Positions 4,910-13,178 of a stretch of DNA of 18,211 nt are shown here, one piece after another. The translations under genes were made by a program, and so were the position numbers. The first letter of the stretch is position 1. Each line of letters opens with the position of its first letter. A model generated the notes under the pieces. That model did no database searches and was not told the DNA's origin. It saw nothing but the letters and a program-made list of their open reading frames with translations. The DNA is from Promethearchaeota archaeon (GTDB taxonomy: Archaea; Asgardarchaeota; Lokiarchaeia; Sigyniarchaeales; SOKP01): positions 1 through 18,211 of the forward strand of contig JBHLOI010000065.1 in assembly GCA_048940645.1 (NCBI GenBank). Direction: 5' to 3'.

Positions 4910-5013
4910 TAGCCCGGCACGGATTCGAACCGTGGTGTCCCTTTCAGAGTATGATACTACCCTAAATCTCGGGATTCAGAGTCCCAAATGCTTGTCCACT
5001 ACACTACCGGGCT
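4910..5013 (-). tRNA. tRNA-Gln (anticodon CTG) with a 31-nt intron at position 45/46 (intron 4937-4967); CCA not encoded
   Basis: Minus strand reads AGCCCGG-TA-GTGTAGTGGACAAGCAT-T-TGGGA-CTCTGAA-TCCCG-AG[ATTTAGGGTAGTATCATACTCTGAAAGGGAC]AC-CACGG-TTCGAAT-CCGTG-CCGGGCT-A. Removing 31 nt gives a 73-nt cloverleaf with A1-U72, typical of archaeal tRNA-Gln. Confidence 0.93.
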
Positions 5014-10137: not shown

Positions 10138-10776
10138 ATGTCGAAAGTAAAAAAAATAGGAGCATTAGCCTCCGGATCGGGTAGTAATTTTGAAGCTATA
10201 GTAAAAGCATGTGAAAATGGAATTTTAAAGAATAAAGCAAAAGTAGAAGTTTTAATCTGCAATAAACCTGGAGCCTTTTGCATGGAACGTGCTAAAAAAC
10301 ATAATATCCCCTATTTTTTAATAGAATCTGATAAATATCTTCATTTACCAAGAGAAGAATTTGATGAAAAAATGATAACCATATTAAAACAATATGAATG
10401 TGATTTAATTGTGTTAGTTGGTTATATGAGGCTAGTAAGTCAAAAGTTTATTAACACTTTTAAGGGAAATGTAATGAACATCCATCCTGCATTGTTGCCT
10501 TCTTTCAGAGGAATGCATGCCCATAAAGATGCCTTGGAATATGGAGTAAAAGTTTCTGGAGCTACAGTTCATTTTGTAGATGTAGAAACTGATCATGGCC
10601 CTATTATAATTCAAAAGTGTGTCCCTGTATATGATACTGATACTGAAGGAACTTTAGGTCCAAGAGTTTTAGAATGGGAACACAAAATTTTCCCAAAAGC
10701 GATTGAGTTATATTGTGACGGGAGGTTACATATAGATAACAGAATAGTAAAAATAGATGGAGAACTAAAATTATAA
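10138..10776 (+). CDS. purN: Phosphoribosylglycinamide formyltransferase
   Basis: LASGSGSNFEAI, GYMR, NIHPALLPSF, GATVHFV, DHGPII and EH motifs. Confidence 0.97.
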   Translation: MSKVKKIGALASGSGSNFEAIVKACENGILKNKAKVEVLICNKPGAFCMERAKKHNIPYFLIESDKYLHLPREEFDEKMITILKQYECDLIVLVGYMRLVSQKFINTFKGNVMNIHPALLPSFRGMHAHKDALEYGVKVSGATVHFVDVETDHGPIIIQKCVPVYDTDTEGTLGPRVLEWEHKIFPKAIELYCDGRLHIDNRIVKIDGELKL

Positions 10777-10794
10777 GTTATTGCATCATATAAT

Positions 10795-10897
10795 GCGGGA
10801 AATGATTTCGTTGAAAACTCTGACCCAACTGAAAATTGAAAATATTATTTCAATTTTATGAAGATGATCTTGAGTTATGAGAATCATCATTTCCCGC
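10795..10897 (+). ncRNA. Box C/D methylation-guide sRNA; predicted target Cm34 of tRNA-Leu(CAA)
   Basis: 12-bp terminal stem GCGGGAAATGAT/ATCATTTCCCGC; degenerate C box TTGAAAA (10811-17); 11-nt guide; D' CTGA (10829-32); 9-bp hairpin; C' ATGAAGA (10858-64); 12-nt guide TGATCTTGAGTT; D box ATGA (10877-80). TATA-like TTATAA at 10771-76 and a T-tract at 10901-05. Confidence 0.75.
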
Positions 10898-10988
10898 TCC
10901 TTTTTAAGTTCTAATAATCCTAAAATTTTAATCGAAAGAATTATTGATTATTTATATATCATATTAAGAAACTGAATAGGTAATAGTA

Positions 10989-13178
10989 ATGCCACGCCGT
11001 AAGGAAATAACAGATATACTAAGAATGATGGAACAAACAGAGAATATAAGAAATTTTGGATTAGTTGGGCATATAGACCACGGTAAAACTACCCTTTCTG
11101 ATTCATTATTAAGTGAAGCTGGTTTTTTATCGCCAGATTTAGCTGGTGAAGCTAGAGCACTTGATTATCTAGAAGAAGAACAACAACGTGGAATTACTAT
11201 GAAATCTGCCAATATTTCTTTGTATTATGAAAAGACATTGGAAGACCATAAACCCTTTCTTATTAATTTAGTTGACACCCCAGGACACTTAGATTTTAGT
11301 GGTAAAGTTACACGAGCTTTAAGGCTAGTTGACGGAGTTGTGGTTGTAGTTGACGCAGTTGAAGAAATTATCACTCAATCTGAAACAGTAATTAAACAAG
11401 CGTTACAAGAACGAGTTAAACCGATCTTGTATATAAATAAAGTGGATCGTCTTATTCGAGAATTAAAATTGACTGACGAGGAGATAAGAAAGAAATATAC
11501 TAGAATTATTAATGATTTTAATAAACTTATTAAAAGATATGCCGATAAACCATTCAAAAAAGAATGGCAAGTATCCCCCGCTAATGGAAATGTCGCTTTT
11601 GGATCCGCACTTCATAAATGGGGCTTTACGTTAAAAATTTTGGAAAAAAGTGAACTTAAATTCAGTGATATAAAAGCTAGATATAAAAAAGAGACTTATT
11701 CAAAAGAAACATATGCAGATTTGGTTATATATCTTCCAATTCATAAAGCCATTTTAGAAATGGTCGTAGATCATCTTCCCAATCCTAAAGAGGCACAGAA
11801 ATACAGAATCGAAAAAATCTGGGATGGAGATATCAATTCAGAAATAGGACACGCAATGAGAGAATGTAATCCTCTTGGCCCATTAGTGATTTGTATGAGT
11901 AAAGTACAAGTTGATAAACAAAATCTTATAGCTACAGGAAGAATTTTCTCAGGGATTTGCTCAAAAAGAGAAGAAATATTTTTATTACGTGAAAATAATT
12001 ATGAAGTGATTCAACGTACAGCTATTTTTATGGGTCAAAGAAGAGAACAGGTCGAAAAAGTACCTGTTGGAAATATAGTGGCAATAGAAGGTCTTAAAAG
12101 GCTAAAAAGTGGCGAAACTATTGTTGAAAGTAATTACATAGATAAGATGGTTCCATTTGAAGATGTAAAATATGTAACTACCCCAGTTGTTACAGTCTCT
12201 ATTGAACCTGAATATTTGAGGGATATGGATGAAATGAGAAAATTAATTGAAAATCTAATGATTGAAGACCCAAATTTAAGATTTGAAATTAATGAGGAAA
12301 ACGGTGAATTCTTATTATCGGGTATGGGACCATTACATCTTGAAGTAACAGCAAAGGAAATAGAAAAAAGGGGTATAAAGGTTTCAATATCGGAACCAAG
12401 GGCAGTTTTCAAGGAATCATGTCGATCTAATTCATCATTAATTACTGTGAATTCACCAAATAATCAGAGTTCCCTTTCAATTAAGATTGAGAGATTGGAT
12501 CGCAAAACAGCTAGTTTTTTACAATCTGTAAATATTAATTCATTTAAGCCCTTAAGTGTTTTAAAAGAAATTTTGGAAAAGAAGACAAACTTAAGGGAAT
12601 CTGATATTGAACACTTTTGGAAATTTGATAGTGATCAAAATCTCCTAATTTATAATGGAATTGATAATTTAAATGAGTTTTTTAAGAATATTATTATTGA
12701 AATTTTCAAAAAAATTCAGCTAAACGGACCACTCTGTGGTGAAAAACTTACTGAACTTAAAATTAGCGTTGAAAATTTGAAGATCGATAATTTAAATGAG
12801 GAGAATGCATTTACAGAATTATCTACTATGTTTTATGAAGCAATAAAAAAAGGACTTAACGAAGCTGAATTAATTTTACTCGAACCATTATACCATTGCA
12901 TTATCCAACTGCCTCCAGATTATATTAAAAATGTATTAACTTTACTCACGAAATATTCAGCTAAAATTAAAAATATAAATCAGGAGAAAGAATATCAAGC
13001 GATAATCGAAATCCTAATCCCTGTTAGGAATTCAATAAAATTTGCTGAAGATATACGATCTACCACCTCAGGAAGAGCTTTCTGGCAAAATGAATTTTAT
13101 GCCTTTTTGGAAGTTCCGCACCATGAGGCAAATTCAATAATTAATAACCTGCGATTTATAAAAGGACTTTCTTGGTAA
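10989..13178 (+). CDS. Elongation factor 2 paralog (aEF-2p type, lacks the diphthamide His motif)
   Basis: Intact G motifs GHIDHGKTT, RGIT, DTPGH, NKVD and GSAL, plus GMGPLHLE, GPLC and LLEP. The domain IV loop reads KIDNLNEENAF in place of HEDxxHRG. Confidence 0.92.
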   Translation: MPRRKEITDILRMMEQTENIRNFGLVGHIDHGKTTLSDSLLSEAGFLSPDLAGEARALDYLEEEQQRGITMKSANISLYYEKTLEDHKPFLINLVDTPGHLDFSGKVTRALRLVDGVVVVVDAVEEIITQSETVIKQALQERVKPILYINKVDRLIRELKLTDEEIRKKYTRIINDFNKLIKRYADKPFKKEWQVSPANGNVAFGSALHKWGFTLKILEKSELKFSDIKARYKKETYSKETYADLVIYLPIHKAILEMVVDHLPNPKEAQKYRIEKIWDGDINSEIGHAMRECNPLGPLVICMSKVQVDKQNLIATGRIFSGICSKREEIFLLRENNYEVIQRTAIFMGQRREQVEKVPVGNIVAIEGLKRLKSGETIVESNYIDKMVPFEDVKYVTTPVVTVSIEPEYLRDMDEMRKLIENLMIEDPNLRFEINEENGEFLLSGMGPLHLEVTAKEIEKRGIKVSISEPRAVFKESCRSNSSLITVNSPNNQSSLSIKIERLDRKTASFLQSVNINSFKPLSVLKEILEKKTNLRESDIEHFWKFDSDQNLLIYNGIDNLNEFFKNIIIEIFKKIQLNGPLCGEKLTELKISVENLKIDNLNEENAFTELSTMFYEAIKKGLNEAELILLEPLYHCIIQLPPDYIKNVLTLLTKYSAKIKNINQEKEYQAIIEILIPVRNSIKFAEDIRSTTSGRAFWQNEFYAFLEVPHHEANSIINNLRFIKGLSW

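Follow-up and report, generated by a model that had tools for sequence, protein, structure and literature searches.

In an 18,211-nucleotide (nt) stretch of a Promethearchaeota archaeon genome (contig JBHLOI010000065.1, here called the window in its full length), a 103-nt element at positions 10795-10897 of the + strand very probably represents the gene of a box C/D guide RNA, which is absent from Rfam and has an unusual second guide. The RNA would act in trans as an archaeal guide of this class and form a particle with L7Ae, Nop5 and fibrillarin, and its D guide would pair with the anticodon arm of tRNA-Leu(CAA), where C34 would form the fifth pair from box D and receive a 2'-O-methyl group. 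The second guide, located in front of box D', would pair with a tag of 8-11 nt (GGGUCAGA in the host) inside the intron of pre-tRNA-Met(CAU). Since the tag lies inside the intron, at least this interaction would occur before splicing. Expression of the element and methylation of C34 are predicted.

The initial annotation, which was made from the sequence alone, had proposed the order C, guide, D', hairpin, C', guide, D with two kink-turn geometries and guides of 11 and 12 nt. This layout was found again in our analysis (Table 1), as were the features that it had called unusual, namely the length of 103 nt, the terminal stem of 12 bp, the C'/D' hairpin and the degenerate boxes C and D. The spacers of 11 nt between C and D' and of 12 nt between C' and D agree with the approximately 12-nt spacing of archaeal box C/D small RNAs (sRNAs). 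The internal motif, in which AUGAAGA and CUGA form tandem G-A pairs with a 3-nt bulge and the hairpin as closing stem, can be drawn as a kink-turn close to the textbook form. The terminal kink-turn is degenerate; in the local copy the tandem G-A/A-G pairs between UUGAAAA (10811-10817) and AUGA (10877-10880), the 3-nt bulge and the stem are retained, and the box letters are non-canonical. Purely as a description, the RNA can also be viewed in a circularly permuted form, in which the strong pair (AUGAAGA, CUGA) is terminal and the weak pair internal, as in most guide RNAs. An internal AACUC/GAGUU helix between the guides, which appears in the minimum-energy fold, is unconserved beyond close relatives and was rejected as a structural element.

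The D guide has a predicted partner in the host genome, for which we use the handle G000 (C, L and f with a number denote contigs, loci and families, other G numbers further genomes). The target ACUCAAGAUC predicted by the initial annotation is present in the host tRNA-Leu(CAA), whose anticodon arm AUGGA-CUCAAGA-UCCAU contains GACUCAAGAUC with C34 at the N+5 position. ARAGORN and the Rfam tRNA model listed no tRNA-Leu(CAA) in the host genome, and the gene was recovered by a pattern search of the guide target (G000:C43:~26990-27146, - strand, corresponding to L185:141-297, - strand). The tRNA finders missed it because of two non-canonical introns, one of ~41 nt in the D-loop and one of ~28 nt in the T-loop. 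Genome-wide, the predicted target ACTCAAGATC occurs at six sites, of which one is within this gene. The D guide can form 10 Watson-Crick pairs with tRNA positions 31-40 and a G-U pair with position 30. According to the N+5 rule, the fifth base upstream of box D designates the residue to be methylated, and the fifth base 5' of the local AUGA is a G that pairs with C34. The same anticodon arm is present in genomes of four genera, and the guide segment GAUCUUGAGU is invariant across the order. Moreover, the host genome contains the protein partners of such a particle, i.e. adjoining genes for fibrillarin and Nop5 as well as two L7Ae-family matches.

The element is single-copy in the host genome, and BLAST found a match with 70-96% identity in approximately 32 of the 36 searched genomes of the same genus. 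Within the genus, hardly any change is seen in the terminal stem, the two guides and the boxes, and the hairpin sequence changes with compensation. No element was found in G011, G020, G022 and G030; there, a 1.1-kb query comprising the 3' part of the upstream purN gene, the element and the start of the downstream EF-2 paralogue was also unmatched, and in G027 the match stops at a contig edge, so that these absences are uninformative. At the order level, a search with a covariance model made from the genus copies returned exactly one copy in 109 of 131 genomes of the host family (f1) and in 11 of 14 genomes of its sister family (f2). A second model built from a diverse set gave single matches in 88 of 151 genomes across the phylum, distributed over many families. 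It must be mentioned that these genome samples are draws of related organisms, hence the counts are not independent, that the E-values of custom covariance models are rough and that absence in incomplete assemblies means little.

Both stems covary. Among 46 diverse copies, all 26 modelled stem pairs change on both sides, and 86.8% of the cells are paired compared to 60% after shuffling and at most 55% with slid partners, in an alignment that was fitted to the model and is thereby biased toward the structure. RNAalifold independently recovers the covarying terminal stem in distant homologues. All nine pairs of the hairpin change on both sides, its sequence being otherwise free to vary, and in other families the terminal stem is replaced by unrelated complementary sequence, such as GAUCGGU/ACCGAUC in the sister family. 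The guides and the GA dinucleotides of the boxes stay fixed while both stems covary, which is the pattern of a box C/D sRNA.

The initial annotation had regarded missing conservation of boxes and guides in relatives as a reason to give up its proposal. They are conserved, and distant homologues even have canonical boxes at the same register. Twenty phylum-level homologues of 73-102 nt were examined; most of them are canonical with GAUGAUGA or GAUGAUA, CUGA, AUGAUGA and CUGA, the box D register holds canonical CUGA in 11 and nnGA in 7 more, and in 19 of the 20 GAUCUUGAG is followed by U, one base and box D. That these canonical boxes stand at the same positions supports the assignment of the local UUGAAAA and AUGA as boxes C and D. 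At the position of box C, other families display GAUGAUA, GAUGAAA or GAUGAUGA, and the 11-nt spacing between C and D' is kept in nearly all homologues with a placeable box C. In the 50 order-level homologues tallied in Table 1, GA is fixed in D', C' and mostly in D, and the remaining box letters vary. In some lineages the terminal motif is AAUGCGC with GCGA or GCUA, so that Watson-Crick pairs instead of the tandem G-A come after the 3-nt bulge.

The initial annotation had left the D' guide without an assigned target and saw in it a weak resemblance to a tRNA D-loop. This part did not stand, since the guide instead matches a motif of the pre-tRNA-Met(CAU) intron that is conserved and co-varies with it. 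The complement of the full 11-mer has no exact match in the host genome. The 10-mer UUGGGUCAGA has five sites, one of them in the 32-nt intron of the elongator-type tRNA-Met(CAU) (G000:C36:47950-47959), and for the core octamer GGGUCAGA there are 13 sites in the whole genome, including the one in the tRNA-Met intron. Of the 50 order-level sRNAs tallied, 49 have the guide core UCUGACCC unchanged. On the side of the tRNA, (A/U)UGGGUCAGA is invariant in every complete tRNA-Met intron of the genus that was read, next to a variable remainder, and this holds also for a group in which the intron precedes the anticodon loop instead of following it. Furthermore, in 20 additional genomes, which belong to 13 other genera and cover the sister family as well, all tRNA-Met introns contain GGGUCAGA whatever their length.

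Guide and intron also change together. In the host family f1, guide CUCUGACCCAA and intron UUGGGUCAGA form 10 contiguous pairs, in f24 guide AUCUGACCCCA and intron UGGGGUCAGAU form 11 pairs, and in f12 guide GCUAUGACCCCA and intron UGGGGUCAUA form 10 pairs. In one genus, the second base of the guide 3' flank tracks the intron as well, being U with A in G106 and A with U elsewhere. This covariation concerns f24 and f12 only, i.e. few lineages. Taken from the sequences, there is good evidence that the D' guide pairs with the tRNA-Met intron tag in vivo. We rejected rRNA as the target of the D' guide: the host assembly includes a partial large-subunit (LSU) rRNA and no small-subunit rRNA, and the best sites in the LSU rRNA of a congener, UUGGGUUAAGG and AUGGGUUAGAA, need 1-2 mismatches plus G-U and are weaker than the intron.

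The tRNA-Met(CAU) genes show further peculiarities. A genome of a distant family contains two tRNA(CAU) genes ~190 nt apart (G183:C356:8380-8720), and both introns carry the tag GGGGUCAGA. In several close relatives, namely G019 (C197:41576-41657 and 42653-42681) and likewise G022, G030, G070 and G026, ~1 kb separates the initial ~24-29 nt of tRNA-Met(CAU) from the remainder, which points to a split tRNA gene or to a D-arm intron of very large size. At the same place, a D-loop intron of 25-40 nt is found in other genera.

What the docking on an intron could be good for can be approached in different ways. The possibility that we prefer, though tentatively and with more doubt than confidence, is that the intron tags are address labels, by which one sRNA serves residue 34 of Leu-CAA, Met-CAU and Leu-UAA before splicing. 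Leu-CAA would be matched perfectly by the D guide, and the two other tRNAs would be recruited only as precursors via the tag. With the docking as an anchor, residue 34 of pre-tRNA-Met could also be modified by the D guide despite the imperfect match; the guide faces ACUCA, two mismatches (U-U, A-C) and AUC there, with C34 at N+5. Pre-tRNA-Leu(UAA) might be served likewise via a near-copy of the tag in its own intron. Its anticodon arm is CUGGA-CUUAAGA-UCCAG, to which the D guide offers nine Watson-Crick pairs and a G-U pair at residue 34, and its D-loop intron has the invariant near-copy GGGUCAAGA in 32 genomes. Part of this motif could form pairs with GGUCUU where exon and intron meet and resembles a helix of its own intron, hence the meaning of the motif is less clear. 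The full intron motif GGGUCAAGAC (32 genomes) is one base longer than the tRNA-Met tag, and in the host the tRNA-Leu(UAA) gene is found at two contig ends (G000:C21:14100-14220, + strand, and C99:23901-23975, - strand). Taken literally, the N+5 rule would let the D' guide methylate the third G of the intron tag, which is equally allowed by the geometry.

One could also assume that the box C/D RNA acts mainly as a chaperone or splicing cofactor for pre-tRNAs, in which the docking keeps pre-tRNA-Met splice-competent and methylation is secondary or absent. The degeneration or loss of the terminal kink-turn in part of the family would fit this assumption, and in our own reading of the sequence the tag part UCAGA can pair with the 3' anticodon-stem strand UCUGG and thus compete with the correct stem. 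Archaeal rRNA offers examples of dual guides that are paired on neighbouring sites (PMC7994747) and may act as folding chaperones. Nevertheless, we consider this reading unlikely. The D guide sets C34 exactly at N+5 in every homologue, the register is unchanged where the boxes are canonical, and the same guide is catalytically active in Pyrococcus (PMC3413156). Wang, Yang and Ye (2022) engineered guides that lack the C/D motifs and found that plain stems can take the place of these motifs in Nop5 binding and correct substrate placement (PMC9670817). Hence, the loss of the kink-turn does not imply the loss of methylation, and for the same reason degenerate terminal boxes need not be fatal.

The genomic context leads to another alternative. 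The element is located between a purN-like and an EF-2-like open reading frame on the same strand (Table 1). The HRG diphthamide motif is missing from the downstream protein, and C46 encodes another EF-2 homologue with 32% identity, so that the downstream gene represents an EF-2 paralogue. Among the genus loci, the EF-2-like gene follows in 28 of the 28 with readable downstream sequence, and purN precedes in 27 of 29. In two families, whose EF-2 proteins are 55% identical, the element is found 25-190 nt upstream of the EF-2 paralogue in ~34 of 43 loci. Together with L7Ae binding to mRNA kink-turns, which has been reported in archaea (PMC5539422), this arrangement could point to a cis-acting leader, i.e. 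a kink-turn in the 5' region of the EF-2 paralogue or at the 3' end of purN that binds L7Ae, the complementarity to tRNAs being incidental. However, about eight order-level loci (L128, L135, L146, L151, L160, L138, L149 and L142) and each of the 20 phylum-level loci lack this linkage and have unchanged guides, which disfavours a purely cis-regulatory role. A regulatory kink-turn would also leave two invariant single-stranded segments of 8-10 nt, one matching an anticodon loop and the other covarying with an intron, unexplained, and a T5 run 3' of the element and a separate TTTATATA in front of the EF-2 paralogue also count against a leader, weak as these terminator and promoter readings are. 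We therefore regard such a leader as very unlikely. One metatranscriptome contig starts at 10979, which is compatible with a separate promoter, a contig end being different from a mapped start site.

The folding energy of the + strand is -29.7 kcal/mol (z = -5.3 versus shuffles). The minus strand also folds well because the element is a near-palindrome, hence folding by itself cannot pick the strand. A covariance model, which was built from + strand sequences, scores 120.9 bits on + and 36.4 bits on -, and G-U pairs in several helices would turn into A-C mismatches on the minus strand, which favours the + strand. In Rfam release 15, scanned with gathering thresholds and with permissive E-values, the element reaches no family threshold, so it is unannotated in this sense, as the initial annotation had stated. 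Its best matches are minus-strand models of small nucleolar RNAs (snoRNAs) with 18-20 bits versus thresholds of 50-95 and E > 1, which result from the AUGAUGA present on that strand. A minus-strand RNA was rejected, since a D box is missing there, the G-U pairs are lost and the canonical C, D, C' and D' boxes of distant homologues exist on + only. That the element is not an RNA gene but inverted-repeat DNA, a purN terminator hairpin or part of a minus-strand transcript, as the good folding of both strands and the exclusively minus-strand Rfam matches could suggest, is hardly credible for a single-copy element with boxes on + only, and in a terminator or repeat one would not expect two unpaired segments to stay invariant throughout a phylum.

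Several observations weigh against a guide RNA of the kind proposed here and should be kept in mind. Within two families the element is tightly linked to the EF-2 paralogue, which might hint at a role at the locus itself. The local box C agrees with the consensus at 4 of 7 positions and box D at 3 of 4, which makes the terminal boxes weak. In ~8-14 of the 50 homologues, tandem G-A is absent from the terminal motif (GCGC/GCGA or GCUA), and L7Ae binding may fail in these relatives. For f27, f10 and f14 (guides UCUAGCCC), the anchored pattern CTCATA..GGGYYAGR led to no convincing tRNA-Met intron. The two mismatches of the D guide with tRNA-Met are central, which speaks against the anchor, and we know of no role for a methylated nucleotide in an intron tag. 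Four metatranscriptome runs, with 5-9% of words shared, gave contigs that stop in purN or in the EF-2 paralogue and are uninformative for the element.

Among known systems, sR47 of Pyrococcus abyssi is the closest RNA. The initial annotation had already pointed to Pyrococcus, and this precedent was borne out: sR47 together with L7Ae, Nop5 and fibrillarin methylates C34 of tRNA-Leu(CAA) in vitro (PMC3413156). The D guide of sR47 pairs with GACUCAAGAUCC of tRNA-Leu(CAA) for 2'-O-methylation of C34, as that of our element would, and the 10-nt guide core is necessarily the same, the likeness resting on the shared target complementarity. In contrast to sR47, the element is 103 nt long with a terminal stem of 11-12 bp and a hairpin-closed C'/D' kink-turn, its terminal boxes are degenerate, and its D' guide would dock on a tRNA-Met intron. 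Pyrococcus has separate residue-34 guides for tRNA-Leu(CAA), Leu(UAA), Met and Trp (PMC7994747), in haloarchaea Cm34 of tRNA-Met is guided by sR-tMet (PMC4033218), and the guide in the tRNA-Trp intron was shown to methylate its own pre-tRNA (PMC4033218; PMC7994747). They share wobble 2'-O-methylation with the proposed RNA, and Leu-CAA, Leu-UAA and Met are the tRNAs that are also tied to our element. However, sR-tMet and the Pyrococcus guides are individual RNAs, and each of them forms a single contiguous duplex with its target. According to Joardar and colleagues in 2011, sR-tMet reportedly acts on the intron-containing pre-tRNA-Met, its duplex spanning the exon-intron junction. Our element differs by combining a perfect Leu(CAA) guide with a second guide that would pair 12-16 nt away and wholly within the intron.

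A certain likeness exists also to those eukaryotic box C/D snoRNAs that have accessory (extra) base-pairing and one degenerate box pair; in common are one strong and one weak box pair, a D'-C' stem and, possibly, a second complementarity that aids a weak guide. Such accessory base-pairing was reportedly described by van Nues and colleagues in 2011. The element differs in being archaeal, in its internal strong kink-turn and in that the second complementarity is the other guide and not an adjacent segment. Compared to the engineered guides mentioned above, the family members with the terminal motif GCGC/GCGA or GCUA look workable; the former are laboratory constructs, and the latter would be natural cases.

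A dedicated guide for C34 of tRNA-Met was searched in the host genome by simple patterns, which gave noise and one uncertain candidate around C57:74664. At this locus (G000:C57:~74600-74760, - strand), GUGAUGA is followed by CUGA 18 nt later, and the last 12 nt in between, GGAAUAUGAGUU, are antisense to ACUCAUAUUCC with C34 of the CAU anticodon at N+5. It could be another wobble guide, its boxes and spacing being irregular.

The host assembly has 3.83 Mb, 29.8% G+C and 126 contigs, with many intron-containing tRNAs and tRNA-Sec. Matches at Rfam gathering thresholds in the window are restricted to tRNA and located outside the element. Positions 4910-5013 (- strand) contain an intron-containing tRNA (49 bits with the Rfam tRNA model), identified by ARAGORN as tRNA-Gln(CUG) with a 26-nt intron. 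Elsewhere in the host genome, ARAGORN annotates G000:C43:44342-44444 (- strand; L186) as 'tRNA-Stop(tta)', which by eye is a tRNA-Ala(UGC) with a D-arm intron and the arm CUUGA-CUUGCAC-UCAAG.

Table 1. Features of the predicted guide RNA gene, its neighbourhood and its protein partners. Positions refer to the window unless a contig (C) of the host genome is given; tallies refer to 50 homologues.
Feature	Position	Strand	Remarks
Whole box C/D sRNA gene (predicted), 103 nt	10795-10897	+	Single copy per genome
Terminal stem, 5' strand	10795-10806	+	12 bp with 10886-10897; sequence invariant in genus
Outer kink-turn, closing pairs and bulge	10807-10812	+	UC/GA pairs, then 3-nt bulge GUU at 10810-10812
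Box C, degenerate UUGAAAA	10811-10817	+	GA retained; 11 nt 5' of D'; xUGAnnn at this distance in most of 50 copies
D' guide CUCUGACCCAA, 11 nt	10818-10828	+	Core UCUGACCC
Box D' CUGA	10829-10832	+	Directly 3' of D' guide; CnGA in 47/50, GA invariant
C'/D' hairpin	10833-10856	+	Closes internal kink-turn; 9 bp and 6-nt loop
Box C' AUGAAGA	10858-10864	+	Preceded by 3-nt bulge (U10857, A, U); RUGAnGA in 41/50, AUGAUGA in 7
D guide UGAUCUUGAGUU, 12 nt	10865-10876	+	Between C' and D
Box D, degenerate AUGA	10877-10880	+	Between D guide and 3' stem; nnGA in 42/50 (AUGA 16, UUGA 10, GCGA 6); variant GCUA in 6/50
Terminal stem, 3' strand	10886-10897	+	Partner of 10795-10806
purN-like open reading frame	10138-10776	+	Upstream of element
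TTATAA	10771-10776	+	~20 nt upstream, overlaps purN stop codon; possible TATA box, distance short; weak
T5 run	10901-10905	+	Possible archaeal terminator, by inference only; relatives T-rich, not always T5
TTTATATA	10951-10958	+	~30 nt before start of EF-2 paralogue; possible separate promoter; weak
EF-2-like open reading frame	10989-13178	+	Downstream of element
Fibrillarin gene	C86:1794-2456		Adjoins Nop5
Nop5 gene	C86:2564-3238		Adjoins fibrillarin

A few cultured archaea are known to have guide RNAs that direct methylation of the tRNA wobble position, and for this phylum we found none described in Rfam or in the literature searched. In the annotation of the host and related genomes, the sRNA gene and the intron-rich tRNA-Leu(CAA), which standard tRNA finders miss, should be included. 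Beyond that, the family would represent a single-copy gene kept across a phylum, with one guide fixed on C34 of tRNA-Leu(CAA) and the other co-evolving with a tag in the pre-tRNA-Met intron. Its members would provide natural examples of a box pair decaying into a plain helix, which fits the engineering work on stem replacement (PMC9670817). The pairing with the intron would be a concrete example in which an RNA acting in trans reads information from a tRNA intron, and bears on the persistence of archaeal tRNA introns as well as on possible beginnings of accessory pairing in eukaryotic snoRNAs. If the tags indeed act as anchors, tRNA introns would gain a selectable function, the fixity of the tag despite changing intron length and position would be explained, and the archaeal RNA would be a counterpart of the accessory base-pairing of eukaryotic snoRNAs.

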